42,765 bases of DNA from Escherichia phage K1ind2: the sequence record NC_041898.1, one strand, 5' to 3'. The position numbers and the translations under genes are program-made. The stretch's first letter is position 1. Every line of letters begins with the position of its first letter. Positions 4,320-42,056 of this stretch are shown here, in pieces. A model generated the notes under the pieces. It had not been told where the DNA came from, made no database searches, and was given only the letters and a program-made list of their open reading frames with translations.

Positions 4320-4324
4320 ACTGA

Positions 4325-4345
4325 AGCCCCGAAAGGGGCTTTTTA
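4325..4345 (+). terminator. Rho-independent terminator
   Basis: gccccgaaaggggc hairpin followed by TTTTT. Confidence 0.6.
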
Positions 4346-4614
4346 GTGCCTGTGATTATTACAGTTATTCCACTCAATTGTAAATGTTGGAATAAACTAT
4401 TCGAATAGTCGACTTTTCACCAAAAATGTGCTAAGCTCCACCTGAGCTTGTGAAGTATGAACAAGCGACCGCGGCGCGGCAGGTAACGGAGCCGGACGTT
4501 AAGTCCGAGTGTAGTTACGCTGACGCGTTCGGAAGGGCCATACTCTATTGCTTGTGTAAAAAGTAACTGGTTTACTGAGATTACGCCGTTTCTATGTTTA
4601 AATGATAAGTACTA

Positions 4615-4643
4615 GCGCCCCGCTTTAAGGCGGGGCTTTACTT
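4615..4643 (+). terminator. Terminator-like hairpin upstream of spanin genes
   Basis: gcgccccgc-ttta-aggcggggc stem-loop followed by T-rich run, about 20 nt before the Rz-like RBS (aaagggggaaacATG). Confidence 0.4.
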
Positions 4644-4661
4644 ATCGAGAAAGGGGGAAAC

Positions 4662-5048
4662 ATGAATCTTAAAGCAACTGTCGTAGCGGGAGCATGTTTC
4701 ATCATCCTGACTTACGCACACGGCATCTACCAGTATCGCATCGGCTGGAACGAAGGCCGGGCCAATCTCGTTTCACAGCAACAGCAGAAAGCACAGGCTG
4801 AGTTAGCGAAGAAAACACAACGGCAGCAGCAGGATGAATCAAAGGCCGCGGCTGCTGACAGCGAAGGCAAGACGAAATCAGAGGTGATTACCCGTGAAGT
4901 CGTTAAGTACATTAAAACGCCTGGTCGCAGCGTGTGCACTTTTGACCCTGAGCGCGTGCAGCTCAAGTCCCGCGCCGTCGCAAACGCCAATTCCATCCCC
5001 GGATATGACGATGATGCAGCCGCCGTGCAAACTGGCCCCGCCAAGTAG
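4662..5048 (+). CDS. i-spanin (Rz-like)
   Basis: 128 aa; N-terminal transmembrane segment (VVAGACFIILTYAHGIY) followed by Q/K/E-rich predicted coiled coil; embedded +1-frame lipoprotein ORF - the classic Rz/Rz1 overlapped architecture. Confidence 0.7.
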   Translation: MNLKATVVAGACFIILTYAHGIYQYRIGWNEGRANLVSQQQQKAQAELAKKTQRQQQDESKAAAADSEGKTKSEVITREVVKYIKTPGRSVCTFDPERVQLKSRAVANANSIPGYDDDAAAVQTGPAK

Positions 5049-13777: not shown

Positions 13778-13807
13778 TTTAAATCCCTCCATTGTTGGTG
13801 TAAGTGA

Positions 13808-13836
13808 ATAGTACCCTATTATATTGGGGTGTGCAA
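13808..13836 (-). promoter_or_regulatory. Sigma70-type promoter (TTGCAC-N17-TACTAT) driving the minus-strand island
   Basis: Minus-strand TTGCAC (plus 13831-13836), 17-nt spacer, TACTAT (plus 13808-13813); 35 of 37 nt identical to the plus-strand promoter at 36087-36123. Confidence 0.6.
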
Positions 13837-26913: not shown

Positions 26914-27198
26914 CTAACTATAATAGCTAGCTATTAGGTCGTCAACCTGTTTAAACGAACCAACGACAAAAACATTCGCACCACGTTTACGCATCCGCTC
27001 ATGTTCCCGTAGCTGGTGCGGGTCTGGCTTCGTGTTCTCGTCTTTCTTAACCTCGACGAACCAGACTATGCCGCCGGGGAGAATTACCAGCAGGTCTGGG
27101 GCGCCGGAACGCCCCTCGTAGGAGAGTTTGCGAACGAGGCCGCCAAGGGCCTCGAATCGGTCTTTTGCGTATTTCTGTACGCGGCCCTCTTTAGTCAT
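26914..27198 (-). CDS. VRR-NUC domain nuclease (PD-(D/E)xK)
   Basis: ORF track 26914-27213; ATG at 27198 (ATGA overlap with upstream small ORF) preferred. Motif GAPDLLVILPGGIVWFVEVKK matches the D...E-x-K core of VRR-NUC proteins. Confidence 0.6.
   Translation of the reverse strand: MTKEGRVQKYAKDRFEALGGLVRKLSYEGRSGAPDLLVILPGGIVWFVEVKKDENTKPDPHQLREHERMRKRGANVFVVGSFKQVDDLIASYYS
26917..26945 (-). promoter_or_regulatory. Sigma70-type promoter (TTGACG-N17-TATAGT), copy 1 of 3
   Basis: Minus-strand -35 TTGACG (plus 26940-26945), 17-nt spacer, -10 TATAGT (plus 26917-26922); about 31-bp element conserved with 30471-30499 and 32569-32597. Confidence 0.6.
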
Positions 27199-30470: not shown

Positions 30471-30499
30471 ACTATAATAGCTAACTATTCAGGTGTCAA
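30471..30499 (-). promoter_or_regulatory. Sigma70-type promoter (TTGACA-N17-TATAGT), copy 2 of 3
   Basis: Minus-strand -35 TTGACA (plus 30494-30499), 17-nt spacer, -10 TATAGT (plus 30471-30476). Confidence 0.6.
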
Positions 30500-32568: not shown

Positions 32569-32597
32569 ACTATAATAGCGAACTATTCACTTGTCAA
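32569..32597 (-). promoter_or_regulatory. Sigma70-type promoter (TTGACA-N17-TATAGT), copy 3 of 3
   Basis: Minus-strand -35 TTGACA (plus 32592-32597), 17-nt spacer, -10 TATAGT (plus 32569-32574). Confidence 0.6.
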
Positions 32598-32894: not shown

Positions 32895-35162
32895 CTATTC
32901 CAAATCTTCCTCGGTCACTGTAAGCATTTCATTCGGTTCGTATATTGTCTTCGGAATCTTGTTGTCCGTTATTCGGGTATTCAATCTGTAACGGCCCGGG
33001 ATTATCTGATTGTTTTCGTCCGTACCAGGTACAAGATACCCCGCCTCAACCATTTTCTTAATCTTTCCGCGTTCTATGGCTTCTTTGGAGTTGAACGCCT
33101 TCGCGTTGGGGTCAGACTGTGCGAGCTTATTTGCCGCGGCTACCGTGATACCTTCGTTGCCGTTGTAGGTTCCTTCCGCCAGTTCAAACGCCGCCAGTAT
33201 CGTGGCTTCCGAACTGTTGACGGCGTTCTCCATGGTTCTACGTACGTTTTCTTTACCTTCCTTAGTCAGTCCTTCTTCCCGCTCTTTCTCCTCGTCGGTC
33301 TTGAACGGTTCGAAGCCCCACGGCATAAGCACAAGCGCTTTGTGCGGCTCAGGCAGGTCGAGGTTAACGGTTGTGCCGTATTCCTCTGTGCTACCGAGGA
33401 ACTCAACCGCGCGGTATTCTTTCGGTGGCGGGGCTTCGCGGAACTGTACCGACTCAAGCACCATACCAACCGTCTTCTGTTGCGGCCCATGCTTAAATTT
33501 AGAGTGGTATACATTTATCTGACGGTCTGTCGCGCGTTCGATTGTCAGCTCCACATCGACGCCAGCGTACAGCGCACCACTACCTCGGGCTTTCTTTCCG
33601 CCCTTCGGTGTATGGTGTACAACGCCTACCGCAGCTTTAGTCGCGTCACGTACTTCTTTCAGGATGGCGATAACCTTACCCATGCCGATTGCCGTTGATG
33701 AACTGTTCTCGTCGAACTTATCAATCGTCAGGGCTAGCGTCTGGTTGAGGGTGTCGAACGCAACCATGCCGATGGGTTCGTCACCCGCAGTTTCACGCAT
33801 CAACTTAATCAGGCTTTTCAGTTTTCCGACTTCGCCCATGTCGATGACATGTACATAATCTTTACCTTCCTCGCTATACTTAGCTGCGAGCGCATCGATA
33901 CGGGTGCGTGTAGCTGCGCCGCCCTCACCGTCGATATAAAAATGGTGGCAACGCTGCGTATCTGCCCCCGCAAACCGGTATCCGGCGGCGCTCAGGTACA
34001 TCATCCCCAGCGTATAGAACGATTTGTACGTGCCGGATTCCCCGACAATATCCCAGATACAATCTGACGGCATGTACCCTTCAACGACGAAATCCGCCTT
34101 TACCGGTTCCGGTAACTCGTCATCCTCTGAGTCCTCATCATCTTCCAGGTCGTCGAGGCTGCATGAAACAGATTCACGTGCACCCCATCCGATGGCCTCT
34201 GCGACTTCACTGAACGGCAGCCCCGTCGCATCGCACGCATACTTCCACACCTCTTTCGGTGACATGCCTTCGGTCGCCGTAATGTCAGTGTCGTGAATCA
34301 TGGTTACGTTCGGCGCCTCATATCCCTCTCGCGGGAAGCACAGCAGGAAGTCATCCGGGCGCGGCGTCGGGTCGCTGTAGTTTTCTGCGTGTTCTGGCGT
34401 AGCTGGCATCTTAAGGCCTCGTGGCGTCATGATACCGCCATACTCGAACGCCAGTGCCTCGAACGCGTCGGTAAACGCGGTGCGCAGTTCTTCCGGTATC
34501 TGGTAATCCGATGCGCTGCTAACGTCAACGGCGGGGATGCCTTCCAGTAACTCGTCCGGGTCAATCAGGTCGTTGCGGCGTGACCAGATAACGGTAGAGC
34601 CAACCGGAGGCAGGTACATCGGTTGCGAAAGAGTGAACCCGCTGCGGTCAGCACCCATGCTTTTGAAGAAGTGTTCCAGCAATCCATGGCGAACACGGAT
34701 GATGTCACCACCTTCGACCGGACGGGCCAGCGGCATGACGACGCGAAAGCGCGGGGACTCGTCGGTATGTGATGCCGTGGTATAGATACACAGGCCCCGG
34801 CGGCTGCGTTTAACTAAGCGCACCGCTTCCTGATACTCTTCTGGTGTTGCGCTGTCGAAGTCCAGATACGCCAGCGACGATTTGCTTACAGACGCGTCAC
34901 AGCGATAGAAAAAGCCTTTACGCGCTTGCTTAAAGTCGGCGGTTTCCGGGTCTTTTACAGTGCTGTGCGTCGAGTCGCACGCGGCGGTGATATAACCGGG
35001 CGCGGTCTTCGGGTTAATTCCGTCACGGACAGCATCGAGTGGCTGGATTAACTCTTTCAGGTCGTCCAGTGTTGCCGTGTGTGTGGTTCTGACGTTTATA
35101 TCCTTTTTCTCAGCCCGCGCGTTGCGACGCGACCACGAGTAGGATAAAATTACATCGGACAT
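32895..35162 (-). CDS. Primase-polymerase / helicase fusion protein (AEP-like N-terminus, RecA-like ATPase C-terminus)
   Basis: 755 aa; N-terminal LAYLDFDSA (DxD) and TASHTDE consistent with an AEP/prim-pol domain; central Walker A GESGTYKS and Walker B-like VAFDTL. Confidence 0.65.
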   Translation of the reverse strand: MSDVILSYSWSRRNARAEKKDINVRTTHTATLDDLKELIQPLDAVRDGINPKTAPGYITAACDSTHSTVKDPETADFKQARKGFFYRCDASVSKSSLAYLDFDSATPEEYQEAVRLVKRSRRGLCIYTTASHTDESPRFRVVMPLARPVEGGDIIRVRHGLLEHFFKSMGADRSGFTLSQPMYLPPVGSTVIWSRRNDLIDPDELLEGIPAVDVSSASDYQIPEELRTAFTDAFEALAFEYGGIMTPRGLKMPATPEHAENYSDPTPRPDDFLLCFPREGYEAPNVTMIHDTDITATEGMSPKEVWKYACDATGLPFSEVAEAIGWGARESVSCSLDDLEDDEDSEDDELPEPVKADFVVEGYMPSDCIWDIVGESGTYKSFYTLGMMYLSAAGYRFAGADTQRCHHFYIDGEGGAATRTRIDALAAKYSEEGKDYVHVIDMGEVGKLKSLIKLMRETAGDEPIGMVAFDTLNQTLALTIDKFDENSSSTAIGMGKVIAILKEVRDATKAAVGVVHHTPKGGKKARGSGALYAGVDVELTIERATDRQINVYHSKFKHGPQQKTVGMVLESVQFREAPPPKEYRAVEFLGSTEEYGTTVNLDLPEPHKALVLMPWGFEPFKTDEEKEREEGLTKEGKENVRRTMENAVNSSEATILAAFELAEGTYNGNEGITVAAANKLAQSDPNAKAFNSKEAIERGKIKKMVEAGYLVPGTDENNQIIPGRYRLNTRITDNKIPKTIYEPNEMLTVTEEDLE

Positions 35163-35220
35163 GTTATATTTCCTTCAGCAAGTAATTTGGCCTCGGCGTT
35201 CACCGCGTCGGGGCTTTCTT

Positions 35221-35496
35221 TTATTCCAGGTCGCGGGAGATATTACCCTCGGGCACCAACACTTTTCCAATACTTCTCGCTTTCTCTGTAATAGGCGTCG
35301 CTCTTGTTGCCCGATAAAACTTTCCTTTATTAAGAATCTCACCATGTCGCTCGAGCACATCTAAAGCATGTTTGATCGGGTTTACACCGTAATTATCCAA
35401 CCGGTATCTCCGAAGCCCGTCTACCGTAAAAGCGCCGTTCGCTTCGGTCAGTCTGCGTGCACACATTAATATGTGTTTCTGGAATTTAGTTAGCAT
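35221..35496 (-). CDS. Hypothetical protein
   Basis: ORF track 35221-35541; internal ATG at 35496 with GGAGAA SD preferred (91 aa). Confidence 0.4.
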   Translation of the reverse strand: MLTKFQKHILMCARRLTEANGAFTVDGLRRYRLDNYGVNPIKHALDVLERHGEILNKGKFYRATRATPITEKARSIGKVLVPEGNISRDLE

Positions 35497-35665
35497 CTTT
35501 AACGTTCTCCTTAATCCACGCCTCCACAGTAGCGCGGTCAAAGGTACCTGGCTGACGGTAGCCGTTGATAACGCGGCAACACTCCGGGAACTTTCCTGAC
35601 CGAAGCCAGCGATTAAGAGTCATAGGGGAAACCCCGATTAAGTCTGCTACTTCTTTCTGTGTCAT
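35486..35665 (-). CDS. Small HTH DNA-binding protein (AlpA/excisionase-like)
   Basis: ORF track 35486-35695; ATG at 35665 with GAGAGGG SD preferred. TQKEVADLIGVSPMTLNRWLRSGKFPE is a typical AlpA/MerR-type HTH. Confidence 0.6.
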   Translation of the reverse strand: MTQKEVADLIGVSPMTLNRWLRSGKFPECCRVINGYRQPGTFDRATVEAWIKENVKDAN

Positions 35666-35736
35666 TTTACACGCCCTCTCTATCAAGTGAAACAACTATA
35701 ACACCTACAATAGACAAACACAACCTATTGACAAAA

Positions 35737-35765
35737 TAAAATGTAGCTGTAAAATCAACGTATCG
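35737..35765 (+). promoter_or_regulatory. Candidate sigma70 promoter (TTGACA-N16-TAAAAT) in long intergenic region
   Basis: TTGACA at 35737-35742, 16-nt spacer, TAAAAT; about 380 nt upstream of the first plus-strand early gene. Confidence 0.4.
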
Positions 35766-36086
35766 AATGGCTTTAGTTAAGAATTACTTAGAAACAATAT
35801 TCTTAAGTCTCGGGTACTTAAAGCCCCGCCATAAAGCGGGGCGCTAAATAGTACTCTTGGTAACGTTAGTATCTAAGTTTCCTCAAAGTAACAGCAAGTG
35901 GCAAGAAAGCCCCCGTCTATTTAAATTTTACCCTCCTTCATAAGACACTGATAATTAAAAGTTTCTATAGTTGCCGTAAACGTGGAAGAGAGTACTTCAC
36001 TTCGCTGGGGTGGGCTAACGCCCACCCACTGCGTTGCGTACTCTTTTAAGAAACGAAAGAATCACAACGGCAACGTAACTATTCTC

Positions 36087-36115
36087 TTGCACACCCCAAC
36101 ATAATAGGATACTAT
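36087..36115 (+). promoter_or_regulatory. Sigma70-type early promoter (TTGCAC-N17-TACTAT)
   Basis: -35 TTGCAC 36087-36092, 17-nt spacer, -10 TACTAT 36110-36115; about 35 nt upstream of ATG 36150; near-identical copies at 13808-13836 (minus) and 37387-37415. Confidence 0.65.
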
Positions 36116-36149
36116 TCACTTATCGAGACGAGACAGAGGAGTGAGGGTT

Positions 36150-36347
36150 ATGTTTAAGAATGGTCAGTTGGTTAAATACTCCGACGATAAACACGGCATA
36201 ATTGAATTAAAATCTGCTTTATTTCCAGGAAAGTACGTAGTTACCGTGCAAAATGTGAGAGGAGTAAATTCACAAATATACGTAGCAGAGGAGAACTTAA
36301 AACTCATCGGCAACAATTTTAAATTTAAAGGGGGGAGGGTGAAGTGA
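36150..36347 (+). CDS. Hypothetical early protein
   Basis: ORF track 36141-36347 (GTG); ATG 36150 with GGAGTGAGGG SD preferred (65 aa). Confidence 0.45.
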   Translation: MFKNGQLVKYSDDKHGIIELKSALFPGKYVVTVQNVRGVNSQIYVAEENLKLIGNNFKFKGGRVK

Positions 36348-36547
36348 TGGAAGAATTATTTGAAGAACTGAAACATCATGATTTCGAGGAAATATATTTC
36401 GTAGCTGAACGCTACGAGGTGCATCTGGCGGACGGTATAACGGTTATTACATCTACCAGCGAGCGAATGTTAAATAGCTTACGAGCAATACGAACGGCAT
36501 CGAATCATGATGCTTGTGCCGACGACGCTGAGGGAGGTTGCCGTTAA
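36344..36547 (+). CDS. Hypothetical early protein
   Basis: 67 aa; ATGA overlap with upstream gene; acidic. Confidence 0.45.
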   Translation: MMEELFEELKHHDFEEIYFVAERYEVHLADGITVITSTSERMLNSLRAIRTASNHDACADDAEGGCR

Positions 36548-36726
36548 TGCGAATCCGTATAACTGACCGCAGGCTTGTCCGTATAACTGACCGCAGGCTT
36601 ATAGATTTCGGTATCTCGGTAGGTGATGTTTTTCCGGCGTTCAGCATCAACCATTATGGTTTTATGATTGAGTACAAAGGGTCGTTATTGTTCGTGTATC
36701 GGGATGAATGTGAGGTTCTGGTATGA
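36547..36726 (+). CDS. Hypothetical early protein containing an in-frame 8-codon tandem duplication
   Basis: ORF track 36538-36726 (TTG); ATG 36547 with GAGGGAGG SD preferred (59 aa); encodes RITDRRLVRITDRRLI from the 24-bp DNA tandem repeat. Confidence 0.4.
   Translation: MRIRITDRRLVRITDRRLIDFGISVGDVFPAFSINHYGFMIEYKGSLLFVYRDECEVLV
36554..36601. repeat. 24-bp tandem direct repeat, 2 copies
   Basis: tccgtataactgaccgcaggcttg followed by tccgtataactgaccgcaggctta (47 of 48 positions identical). Confidence 0.9.
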
Positions 36727-36872
36727 GAGAAGCATTTGAACGGTGGGCTGTGGTCGAGGGTCTGCCGGTTAACAAGGGTTCAAAGAAAGAGTACCTGAAC
36801 GTTAAGACGCGTCTCGCGTGGCGGGCGTGGAAAGCTGGTGTGCAATCCTTGATTGAAAGAGGTGTGAGGTAT
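36723..36872 (+). CDS. Small hypothetical protein (49 aa)
   Basis: Hand-found; start overlaps upstream stop, stop overlaps downstream ATG; W/R-rich basic protein. Confidence 0.35.
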
Positions 36873-37071
36873 GGGTGAGTGGATTAAGTGTAGTGAGATG
36901 CTGCCAGGTAATGGGTATACGGATAAAGAGTTCCTGGTGTATGAAACGTTAAATAACGCAGTTCAGCACGATTATTACATAGTTCCTGATGACGGGAGAA
37001 AGCCTTTCTGGAATCACTACGATAAGTACGTGACGCACTGGATGCCGTTACCCGAGCCGCCAGAAGTGTGA
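36871..37071 (+). CDS. DUF551-like protein
   Basis: 66 aa; WIKCSEMLP...VTHWMPLPEPPE matches the conserved pattern of phage DUF551 proteins as I recall it. Confidence 0.55.
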   Translation: MGEWIKCSEMLPGNGYTDKEFLVYETLNNAVQHDYYIVPDDGRKPFWNHYDKYVTHWMPLPEPPEV

Positions 37072-37205
37072 TGTTCAATAGTTTGGGATTTTACTGAGTG
37101 ACTTACGCTGCTACACCGCAGCGTACAACTTTAACTTAGTGTCGTCAAAAGGCGACACTTTCATCAAACGCAACAATCGAAGCGACTATTGCAGGAGATG
37201 CAACA

Positions 37206-37379
37206 ATGATTACTAAAGAACAGGCTGAACGACTAATAACGTTAATCGACACGATGATTGACGTAAAAACCGATTTAGCAACGGCAACAGAGGAATCCGC
37301 TACCTGGTCGCTTGAAGAAAGAGAAGCAGAAGCGGAAAGGGAGTTACTGGCATTCATCGACTCCATAACACACCAATAA
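37206..37379 (+). CDS. Small hypothetical acidic protein (57 aa)
   Basis: Hand-found; AGGAG SD 9 nt before ATG; preceded by two stem-loops (37110-37170). Confidence 0.35.
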   Translation: MITKEQAERLITLIDTMIDVKTDLATATEESATWSLEEREAEAERELLAFIDSITHQ

Positions 37380-37386
37380 AATTTAC

Positions 37387-37415
37387 TTGCACACTAAGAT
37401 AGAATAGGCTACTAT
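37387..37415 (+). promoter_or_regulatory. Sigma70-type early promoter (TTGCAC-N17-TACTAT)
   Basis: -35 TTGCAC 37387-37392, 17-nt spacer, -10 TACTAT 37410-37415; same family as 36087-36115. Confidence 0.6.
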
Positions 37416-37445
37416 TCATTTACACAAGCGAGAGGAGAGACAGAG

Positions 37446-37580
37446 ATGGGCTGGTACGGTAGCTGGACTTTAGGCGAACTGGTAGACGCTTACGAAATAA
37501 TTAGTAGCACTTCGGTGTGTGACGGCGACACTAAATCGCTGCTAGTCGTGGTGGATGCGAAAAGGGGTGAAGCTGATGAG
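37446..37580 (+). CDS. Small hypothetical protein (44 aa)
   Basis: Hand-found; AGGAGAGA SD upstream; first ORF after promoter; overlaps next gene start. Confidence 0.3.
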
Positions 37581-38121
37581 TAACAAAAACGAAATATTCG
37601 AGTACCTGATCGACCAGCTACGGCAGCAGGTAAATAACAGCCGGAGCGAAGACCTGGCGCATGAGGTGCAGTCACTTAAGAATCAGTTACGTGATGCGTC
37701 GGCGCAGATTAAGGAGTTGCGGGAAGACAACATTAAGAAATCTGAGCACATATCGCACCTGACAGGGCAAGTTAAGGAGTTGCGTCTGGCATTGGCCGAG
37801 GCTACTGGTGACGTGGAGGCATACAAACTTATCCGCAAAGGTGCGTACGGTTCGGAGCAATCTGGTTGCCGAAAAGAAGATACGCAGGAATGTGACCACA
37901 ATTGGATTATCGCTCCAGGATTGTTTATTGCCGAAGGCCACAAGGACAACGTGCCCGGTAGCCTGTTTTGCTGCGAATGCGGCAAGCGTGAGTGGGACGG
38001 ACTTGAGTATGGGGCGACAGCCTGTACACAGGAGTGCAAACACAGTTTCTATTATGTAATAACAGATGGCTCCGCGCCGTTCGGTACGAAAGTATGTAAA
38101 ACGTGTGGGGAATACTTCTGA
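37576..38121 (+). CDS. Hypothetical protein with N-terminal coiled coil and C-terminal Cys-rich (zinc-binding-like) region
   Basis: ORF track 37555-38121; ATG 37576 with AAAAGGGG SD preferred. Heptad-rich N-terminus; C-terminus has multiple CxxC pairs (CCECGK, CKTCGEYF). Confidence 0.5.
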   Translation: MSNKNEIFEYLIDQLRQQVNNSRSEDLAHEVQSLKNQLRDASAQIKELREDNIKKSEHISHLTGQVKELRLALAEATGDVEAYKLIRKGAYGSEQSGCRKEDTQECDHNWIIAPGLFIAEGHKDNVPGSLFCCECGKREWDGLEYGATACTQECKHSFYYVITDGSAPFGTKVCKTCGEYF

Positions 38122-42012: not shown

Positions 42013-42056
42013 CCATTCCCGTAGCTAACGACCATTCCCGTAGCTAACGACCATTA
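42013..42056. repeat. 19-bp tandem direct repeat (2 full copies plus partial third)
   Basis: ccattcccgtagctaacga at 42013-42031 and 42032-42050, then ccattacgg. Confidence 0.9.

Follow-up and report, generated by a model that had tools for sequence, protein, structure and literature searches.

The genome of Escherichia phage K1ind2 (record NC_041898.1) was analysed as one stretch of 42,765 nt, called the window below. Between a minus-strand gene for a helix-turn-helix (HTH) protein and the first small rightward early gene lies a gene-free gap of 484 nt (35666 to 36149). It holds three promoters: P_L and P_R', which point leftward and rightward from a back-to-back arrangement, and P1, which precedes the first early gene. 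A previous reading made from the letters alone (the sequence-only reading) had described about 450 bp of noncoding DNA from 35696 to 36149, and had offered a replication origin, a regulatory hub or a small RNA as its function. The region is indeed noncoding, but the true gap is wider than had been drawn. We suggest, with moderate confidence, that it is an early transcription control region and that RNA from P_R' is most likely a leader that acts in cis.

P_R' is a near-consensus sigma70 promoter, with 11 of 12 consensus positions matched over a 16-nt spacer and a predicted start at about 35762. Three sites in the window reach at least 11/12, against 0.42 expected. This count was reached in 1.5% of first-order Markov resamplings of the window, and all three real sites are intergenic. 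The sequence-only reading had recognized the promoter but placed it at 35737 to 35765, about 9 nt too far to the right. We compared 32 distinct versions of the gap, which came from two IMG/VR pattern scans and from GenBank records. A near-consensus rightward promoter in the left part of the gap is the top plus-strand site in all 32, across four unrelated types of downstream sequence cassette; examples are TTGACA-17-TAAGKT, TTGACT-17-TAAGCT after an extended -10 TG, and TTGAAA-18-TATAAT. The P_R' hexamers are invariant among the relatives that carry the same cassette (type 1) as K1ind2. P_L is the top minus-strand sigma70 site in 31 of the 32 gaps and the second in the remaining one (L041). Its -10 is always TATAGT or TATACT, and it lies 29 to 43 nt ahead of the HTH start codon in 30 gaps, unrelated sequence variants included; the two exceptions are the gap versions that carry an extra small gene. 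P_L has TTATAGTT in common with other leftward promoters. Promoters stand at equivalent places despite unrelated sequence, which indicates that function is conserved where sequence is not. The proposal of a regulatory hub is well supported, with three promoters in the gap and P_L and P_R' kept at equivalent positions in every related phage. The features are collected in Table 1.

Table 1. Elements of the early gap, its left flank and related sites elsewhere in the window
Feature	Position	Strand	Description
HTH gene	35486..35665	minus	59-aa (amino acid) HTH_17 DNA-binding protein; ATG at 35665; first gene of the leftward replication operon
P_L	35695..35723	minus	Leftward promoter of the HTH gene; -35 TTGTGT (35723-35718), 17-nt spacer, -10 TATAGT (35700-35695)
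P_R'	35728..35755	plus	Rightward near-consensus sigma70 promoter, TTGACA-16-TAAAAT; back to back with P_L
Type-1 exchangeable cassette	35756..35914	plus	Variable 5' domain of the presumed P_R' transcript; near-invariant core about 35781-35900
AT-rich inverted repeat	35777-35784 / 35799-35806	not assigned	TTAAGAAT / ATTCTTAA; probably non-functional
Compound hairpin	35812..35856	plus	Outer stem GGGTACT/AGTACTC (35812-35818 / 35850-35856); inner GCCCCGC-CATAAA-GCGGGGC (35823-35842)
Linker	35915..35981	plus	Islands common to all cassette types: GTCTATTTAAAT (35915-35926), TAAGACACTGAT (35941-35952), GTTGCCGTAAA (35970-35980)
Long irregular hairpin, variant A	35986..36047	plus	Upper stem GGGGTGGGC-TAAC-GCCCACCC (36007-36027); lower stem GAGTAC/GTACTC; end UCUUUU
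Anchor block	36051..36085	plus	AAACGAAAGAATCACAACGGCAACGTAACTATTCTC; 35 nt, immediately 5' of P1; most conserved part of the gap
P1	36087..36149	plus	Repeated Kagunavirus promoter; -35 TTGCAC (36087-36092), 17-nt spacer, -10 TACTAT (36110-36115)
Palindrome copies at P1-type promoters	36103-36116, 13806-13819, 37403-37416		AATAG-N4-CTATT
Leftward promoters with palindrome, replication block	32569-32597, 30471-30499, 26917-26945	minus	Near-consensus TTGACA-17-TATAGT
Late unit	4409..4645	plus	Promoter TCGACT-17-TAAGCT (4409-4437), structured RNA 4438-4550 (type-2 family), linker, hairpin 4606-4645

The interior of the gap is a mosaic whose layout is kept. At least four unrelated left cassettes and three terminal hairpins were found, and they reassort freely, in the combinations 1+A, 2+A, 2+C, 3+A, 3+B and 5+B. 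In 30 of the 32 gaps, 397 to 434 nt separate the HTH start codon from a conserved 21-nt anchor just 5' of P1; the other two are those with the extra small gene. The only strongly conserved sequence is the right end, made up of the anchor block, P1 and the 5' untranslated region (5' UTR), and this holds with the Salmonella Jerseyviruses included. The anchor block is 92 to 97% identical from Kagunavirus to Salmonella Jerseyvirus, while the remaining gap is replaced. It is absent from the other P1-type copies. The terminal slot holds variant A in K1ind2, variant B (GGGCAGGC..GCCTGCCC followed by TTTAGTT) or variant C (GGTGCC..GGCACC). U-rich tails follow these hairpins on the plus strand only, and variants B and C have the U-tract of an intrinsic terminator. 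The terminal hairpin of the Jerseyvirus Ent2 carries a compensatory change (GGGCAGGT..ACCTGCCC). A (CTCA)n microsatellite, whose copy number ranges from about 4 to 7 units, directly precedes the hairpin in L009 and several Kagunaviruses with variant C.

Two of the sister cassettes covary as RNA. The type-2 cassette has a 5' hairpin and a long-range helix, as seen with RNAalifold and by direct pair counting. Pair 38:98 occurs as CG 13 times, AU 9 times and UA 7 times, and pair 48:87 as UA 11 times, AU 10 times and GC 9 times. All cells of the tested helices are paired, against 35 to 41% with slid partners, and the 30-sequence alignment contains further covarying pairs. Invariant G-U pairs of this cassette are C-A on the opposite strand. 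The type-3 cassette forms nested helices around a hypervariable hairpin; at the base of this hairpin, pair 47:100 is GC in 5, AU in 3 and UA in 2 cases, and pair 45:102 includes a G-U, in Ent2. The covariation and G-U pairs of the sister cassettes, together with hairpin variants whose U tails lie on the plus strand only, argue for a rightward transcript from the conserved promoter. Covariation of the hairpins had been proposed as a check. It was found in types 2 and 3, and the terminal hairpin compensates in Ent2; for type 1 the sequences were too few.

The type-1 cassette of K1ind2 was found only in phages K1ind3, K1G, K1H, LM02P1 and EC3-1 and in two IMG/VR contigs. Its core of 120 nt is nearly invariant, and the flanks diverge by about 6 to 10%. 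The changes fall in loops, or they break the AT-rich repeat and a GGC/GCC mini-hairpin. The type-2 covariance model (R1) found no match in the gap with filters off, so that type 1 is a positional analogue of the type-2 RNA and not a detectable homologue. This cassette contains a compound hairpin. The sequence-only reading had seen its inner part as a GC hairpin at 35822 to 35844; that hairpin is real, with arms at 35823 to 35829 and 35836 to 35842, and it is nested in an outer stem. On the plus strand the compound hairpin has a folding energy of -24 kcal/mol (z = -4.1), against -22.1 kcal/mol (z = -3.4) on the minus strand, and a G-U pair of the outer stem on the plus strand is an A-C mismatch on the minus strand. 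Among the type-1 relatives it varies at loop positions only. The AT-rich inverted repeat ttaagaat...attcttaa had also been reported. It is present, but it has no significance: its fold of -4.3 kcal/mol (z = -0.34) was equalled or bettered by 66 of 200 shuffles. It is mismatched (TTCAGAAT) in four of the five closest relatives (EC3-1, LM02P1, K1H and L064) and is probably not a functional element.

The second reported hairpin (36010 to 36029) is real as well. Its arms lie at 36008 to 36015 and 36020 to 36027, and it is the top of a 62-nt irregular hairpin (-34.1 kcal/mol, z = -5.6). With its 9-bp stem at 36007 to 36027 (-16.7 kcal/mol), it has the GC-rich stem-loop of an intrinsic terminator. 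However, the tail that follows it, ACUGCGUUGC, has 3 U in 10 nt and falls short of a U-tract, and the terminator scan does not list this hairpin. The UCUUUU run of variant A comes only after the extended lower stem. Like the hairpin of the late unit described below, the long hairpin consists of two stems split by an internal loop. A processing site for RNase III of the T7 type would be an irregular hairpin of about 20 bp with such a loop, shortly before a translation start, and these hairpins may be candidates.

P1 had been reported as an early promoter at 36087, and we confirmed it. An exact TTGCACAC-N-AATAGGnTACTATTCA motif occupies 36087 to 36118, ahead of a gene with the shared ACTTATCG leader. 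This 32-nt motif occurs three times in the window, the other copies being at 13836 to 13805 (minus strand) and 37387 to 37418, and in 0 of 100 shuffles. It was also found at 53 IMG/VR loci, ahead of at least seven different genes. Downstream of P1 are the shared 5' UTR (ACTTATCGAGA...), a Shine-Dalgarno (SD) sequence, GAGGAG (36136 to 36141), and the ATG of the first early gene at 36150. A 14-bp palindrome, AATAG-GATA-CTATT in P1, overlaps the -10. In its general form, AATAG-N4-CTATT, the palindrome lies across the spacer or the -10 in at least six promoters, some on each strand, and in the three leftward promoters of the replication block it sits between -35 and -10. It has the look of an operator through which one phage regulator would act on all of them, and the early 59-aa HTH protein is a candidate for that regulator. 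The palindrome is absent from P_R' and partial at P_L. We therefore take P_L and P_R' to be an immediate-early pair, with a phage protein acting on the promoters that carry the palindrome. TCTATTG was also considered as a binding motif but is not enriched, with 6 sites found where 8 are expected.

The window contains a paralogous leader unit ahead of late genes. Its promoter is of the same kind as that ahead of the early-gap cassette. The structured RNA at 4438 to 4550, about 115 nt long, is the sole match of model R1 in the window (118 bits), and many relatives have two copies of this type-2 RNA, one in the late unit and one in the early gap. The closing hairpin is GCCCCGC-TTTAAG-GCGGGGC plus TTTACTTATC. 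It is terminator-like by the scan (4617 to 4636), and it ends 25 nt before the start codon of a spanin-like gene (ATG at 4662). A strong terminator lies upstream, at 4324 to 4341. Since there is no room for a promoter after the late hairpin, and given the upstream terminator, the late RNA must be a read-through operon leader, and this paralogue favours the leader reading of the early unit. By its sequence, the gene at 4662 looks like an i-spanin, with an N-terminal hydrophobic segment and a coiled-coil region, and an ORF (open reading frame) embedded in it looks like an o-spanin by a lipobox-like motif; capsid genes appear to follow. The late unit, taken over 262 nt, is 94 to 99% identical in 178 Guernseyvirinae records from Escherichia, Salmonella, Raoultella and Shigella hosts, and its hairpin has a compensatory C-G to U-A change in L002 (GCCCTGC/GCAGGGC).

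The early compound hairpin is linked to this late hairpin. Its 28-nt core (35819 to 35846) repeats, in inverted orientation, the hairpin at the end of the late unit, with a 27/28 match to 4640 to 4613. It matches the late hairpin of many other phages at 28/28, and the orientation is inverted in most of the records listed. Homology of type 1 to the late unit beyond these 28 nt was rejected, as local alignments in both orientations were no better than shuffles. The linker resembles the late unit by eye only, and the local-alignment test gave nothing above chance.

These observations can be assembled into the following scheme. Host RNA polymerase would start at the back-to-back promoters P_L and P_R'. 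P_L would drive the HTH regulator and the helicase-primase operon leftward. P_R' would fire rightward into about 290 nt of structured noncoding sequence that comprises the cassette, the linker and the long hairpin. The structures of this leader would determine how much transcription continues past the hairpin, or what processing the RNA undergoes at that point, ahead of its merging with the early transcription driven by P1. P1 would supply the 5' UTR and the ribosome-binding site of the first early gene. The palindrome would mark P1 and the leftward replication promoters as targets of the phage regulator, and P_R' and P_L, which lack the full palindrome, would be the unregulated immediate-early pair. 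The elements, their statistical strength and conserved positions, the exchange of cassettes and the covariation of the sister cassettes are observed; we infer transcription from P_R', the plus-strand sense of the K1ind2 cassette, the role in cis and the regulator.

Several points weigh against the leader. Since the early genes could be expressed from P1 alone, it is not obvious why P_R' would be required. No U-tract directly follows the GC stem of variant A, so the hairpin may be a stop, a pause or mere decoration of the transcript; in relatives, some changes in the lower stem of the long hairpin are compensatory and others disrupt pairing. Compared with its twin at 4617 to 4636, the GC hairpin points the way a leftward terminator would. 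Folding of the entire 289-nt stretch is somewhat stronger on the minus strand (z = -4.0) than on the plus strand (z = -3.0), and with about seven near-identical type-1 sequences there are too few for a covariation test of the cassette's own structure or strand.

Some of the same points bear on the small RNA locus that the sequence-only reading had put forward. Such a locus is plausible on indirect grounds: the sister cassettes covary and fit the plus strand, but the terminal hairpin has no canonical U-tract. Hence a discrete small RNA is no more likely than a read-through leader. In the discrete form, to which we give a modest chance, P_R' would make a trans-acting RNA of about 285 nt that ends at the long hairpin and has host or phage targets. 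A strong promoter of its own, a downstream P1 that makes read-through unneeded, and relatives whose variants B and C do have the terminator U-tract all fit this reading, as do hypervariable, exchangeable cassettes of the kind expected in an arms race. It runs into the tail of variant A, the lack of any Rfam match and a target that is so far only hypothetical. More specifically, the antisense copy of the late-leader hairpin might pair with that hairpin, to which the 28-nt core is complementary at 27/28 in this genome and 28/28 in other phages. However, the antisense match is confined to the rare type-1 cassette and may be just a duplicated terminator. In the boldest version the slot between P_R' and P1 would be a family of exchangeable regulatory RNAs that time the infection, with the antisense hairpin opening the late-leader hairpin so that an early RNA switches on late genes in trans. 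Pairing could start by loop-loop contact with the hairpin that closes the late leader before the spanin and capsid genes, and the second copy of the late leader that fills the slot in most relatives could titrate a factor acting on the leader. We regard this version as highly speculative.

The inverted hairpin also allows the opposite direction of transcription. A leftward RNA of about 100 nt would start at about 35918 from TTATCA-18-TAAAAT (35954 to 35925), converge with P_R' and stop at the GC hairpin (35846 to 35819, tail UUUAAGU). On the minus strand that hairpin is in terminator orientation, like its scored twin in the late unit, and the 106-nt RNA folds into three hairpins with one dominant structure (-40 kcal/mol, z = -4.2). 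The linker has two candidate promoters, this one and TTTACC-17-GATAAT on the plus strand, each 9/12 and the leftward one near the score of P_L; in type-1 relatives their hexamers are invariant and the spacer variable. Yet neither is conserved outside type 1, and the leftward promoter occurs in no other cassette type. The first predicted hairpin of the leftward RNA is broken in EC3-1, K1H and L041, the outer stem has an A-C mismatch where the plus strand has G-U, the tail has only three U, and the sister cassettes are plus-strand RNAs. We think such an RNA unlikely. There is a similarly slim chance that the three promoters alone matter and that the interval from P_R' to P1 is a tolerated spacer of recombination debris, a stray terminator copy included. 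Wholesale replacement of the interior between close relatives would be expected of debris, one hairpin is a plain inverted duplicate of another locus, and the AT-rich inverted repeat is at chance level. Debris does not explain why the length stays at 397 to 434 nt in 30 of 32 variants, why every variant has a strong promoter and a stable hairpin in corresponding positions, why the sister cassettes covary, or why the type-1 core is nearly invariant between diverged flanks.

For a replication origin, the third function that had been suggested, we found no positive evidence. The gap contains no iterons, only two-copy repeats of 8 to 18 nt at chance level, no tandem repeats and no DnaA boxes; boxes are as frequent genome-wide as expected by chance. 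The cumulative GC-skew minimum, another check that had been proposed, lies at about 34000 to 36000. It coincides with the gene-strand switch, so the skew is uninformative on the origin. The G+C content is the lowest of the neighbourhood at 35650 to 35950 (29 to 39%), but the promoter pair accounts for this AT-rich stretch. The helicase-primase operon adjoins the gap, and a promoter followed by structured RNA recalls the transcript-activated origins of ColE1, T4 and T7, so that the P_R' transcript might prime or activate an origin here. However, the slot accepts a copy of a late-gene leader RNA, which fits transcription better than replication. We consider it very unlikely that the gap is or contains an origin. 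Two perfect tandem repeats do occur elsewhere in the window. One, 24 nt x 2.0 (TCCGTATAACTGACCGCAGGCTTG) at 36554 to 36600, is close to where a small early ORF begins; the other, 19 nt x 2.3 (CCATTCCCGTAGCTAACGA), is at 42013 to 42055. They could be iterons or other binding arrays.

Other candidates were examined for the gap. The sequence-only reading had seen no plausible ORF on either strand, and this was borne out: no ORF in the gap is preceded by an SD sequence, and none is conserved across the 32 related gaps. The sole ATG ORF (35767 to 35847, 26 aa) was rejected as a hidden small gene, for it loses or shifts its start in relatives; in the K1H version the start codon lies 3 nt past the -10 hexamer. 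No transfer RNA or transfer-messenger RNA genes were found. A search of the whole window against Rfam 15 gave nothing at the gathering threshold, the late leader RNA included, and the best sub-threshold matches in the gap had E > 2. Nor did relaxed E-values turn up a credible match in the gap, the late unit or two Jerseyvirus loci. Mimicry of a type I-E or I-F host repeat (clustered regularly interspaced short palindromic repeats, CRISPR), as in an RNA anti-CRISPR, was rejected, since the best local alignments did not surpass those of shuffles (in 24 tests p was never below about 0.04); a CRISPR-DR56 match in the Jerseyvirus LSPA1 was weak and below threshold. A host or prophage source of the gap was rejected too, with no match among 5,426 complete E. 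coli genomes. CU-rich plus-strand stretches, UUUCCUC (35878 to 35884) and ACCCUCCUUC (35930 to 35939), resemble the 3' end of 16S ribosomal RNA (the anti-SD sequence), and type-3 cassettes have UUUCCUUCCUU at a comparable place. If the region is transcribed rightward, these stretches might mask ribosome-binding sites.

The genes on both sides are arranged divergently. The leftward block on the minus strand contains a 755-aa helicase-primase, a 91-aa protein and the 59-aa HTH protein, which matches Pfam HTH_17 (E = 3e-9) and also phrog_66. To the right, a run of small overlapping plus-strand ORFs begins at 36150, several of which have matches in phage protein families whose function is unknown. 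The 1.1 kb around the gap is 100% identical to K1ind3 (GU196281; Kagunavirus, Guernseyvirinae), 99% to K1G and 95% to K1H. The K1ind3 record, which is the matching GenBank entry, has no annotation for the HTH gene or for about 10 small, mostly overlapping early ORFs at 36150 to 38120 (about 2 kb), several of which match PHROG or Pfam families (DUF551, DUF7438). The HTH gene is annotated in phages EC3-1, Ent2 and LSPA1. The whole window is identical to no record in the phage collection searched, and the genome is a mosaic within the K1ind group: the early gap equals that of K1ind3, and the late unit is 99.6% identical to K1ind1 and only 95.7% to K1ind3. In Ent2 (L055, 1565 to 2040) and LSPA1 (L056, 1040 to 1530), an extra GC-rich stretch of about 450 nt lies between a P1-like promoter and a second one, and the gap there is about 1 kb. 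The stretch has no plus-strand ORF of at least 30 aa, folds with z = -4.1, has no Rfam match and is conserved between the two phages with indels; the promoter ahead of it is deleted in LSPA1. It is a candidate for a large noncoding RNA.

Published work on this region comprises promoter predictions and one gene-level RNA sequencing study; we found no paper on its transcripts, origin or noncoding RNA. In that study, of phage K1B4, the HTH-domain gene K1B4_008 is one of four early genes by gene-level counts (PMC12645636), and we liken it to the HTH gene here by domain only. PHIRE predicted repeated "phage promoters" in the Kagunavirus genomes fBC-Eco01 (PMC9825357) and Golestan (PMC7203180). P1 is the reverse complement of the fBC-Eco01 consensus, tgAATAGTa-ccTATTat-T (PMC9825357). 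Its motif at 36087 to 36118 is thus the same element, the consensus being the reverse complement of AATAGGnTACTATTCA, with several copies per genome ahead of gene blocks. However, the papers give the prediction only, without the upstream noncoding unit, the palindrome common to leftward promoters or the anchor block. One of the two (PMC9825357, PMC7203180) credits the motif to a phage RNA polymerase. We found no gene for such a polymerase among the ORFs of this phage that were examined.

An early control region with a noncoding leader is a familiar kind of thing in phages. The T7 early region has tandem host promoters A1 to A3, followed by the RNase III site R0.3 before gene 0.3. In K1ind2, likewise, the early operon begins with several hundred bases that hold no gene; sigma70 promoters stand in tandem, and a long irregular hairpin with an internal loop comes shortly ahead of the first ribosome-binding site. 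The gap differs in its divergent leftward promoter and exchangeable interior, and has no sequence similarity to T7; cleavage by RNase III would be hypothetical here. In phage lambda, the unit pR'-6S RNA-tR' works with antitermination by Q, and HK022 uses cis-acting put RNAs. The likeness here is that a strong constitutive promoter leads into structured noncoding RNA of about 200 nt, after which a terminator-like hairpin stands before genes; many relatives have two related copies per genome, and the late copy precedes lysis and capsid genes, like pR'. In contrast, no Q-like or N-like protein was identified and no qut, nut or put sequence was recognized; the early copy here is followed by P1, and variant A is not a canonical terminator. 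Processive antitermination by the leader would fit the layout of the late paralogue, namely promoter, structured RNA, hairpin and promoterless gene, and this analogy is one of layout only. Lambdoid phages have mosaic immunity and early-control regions, in which, as here, layout and length are conserved and unrelated modules are exchanged at short conserved junctions. The modules here are noncoding RNA cassettes instead of repressor-operator sets, and the phages are virulent. As far as we found, the literature holds no earlier description of the exchangeable RNA interior and its link to a conserved late leader.

Although Kagunaviruses and Jerseyviruses are widely isolated for use in therapy against E. 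coli and Salmonella, their transcription programme has yet to be mapped, and the gap is blank in GenBank. The analysis provides a testable map, with likely immediate-early promoters, a palindromic operator at at least six promoters and a noncoding unit with an interior that close relatives exchange. It also brings out a highly conserved leader before lysis and capsid genes that occurs in phages of both E. coli and Salmonella and has no entry in Rfam. Should these RNAs control read-through or timing, they would constitute a compact, RNA-based form of temporal control in virulent siphoviruses and would offer a handle for engineering.

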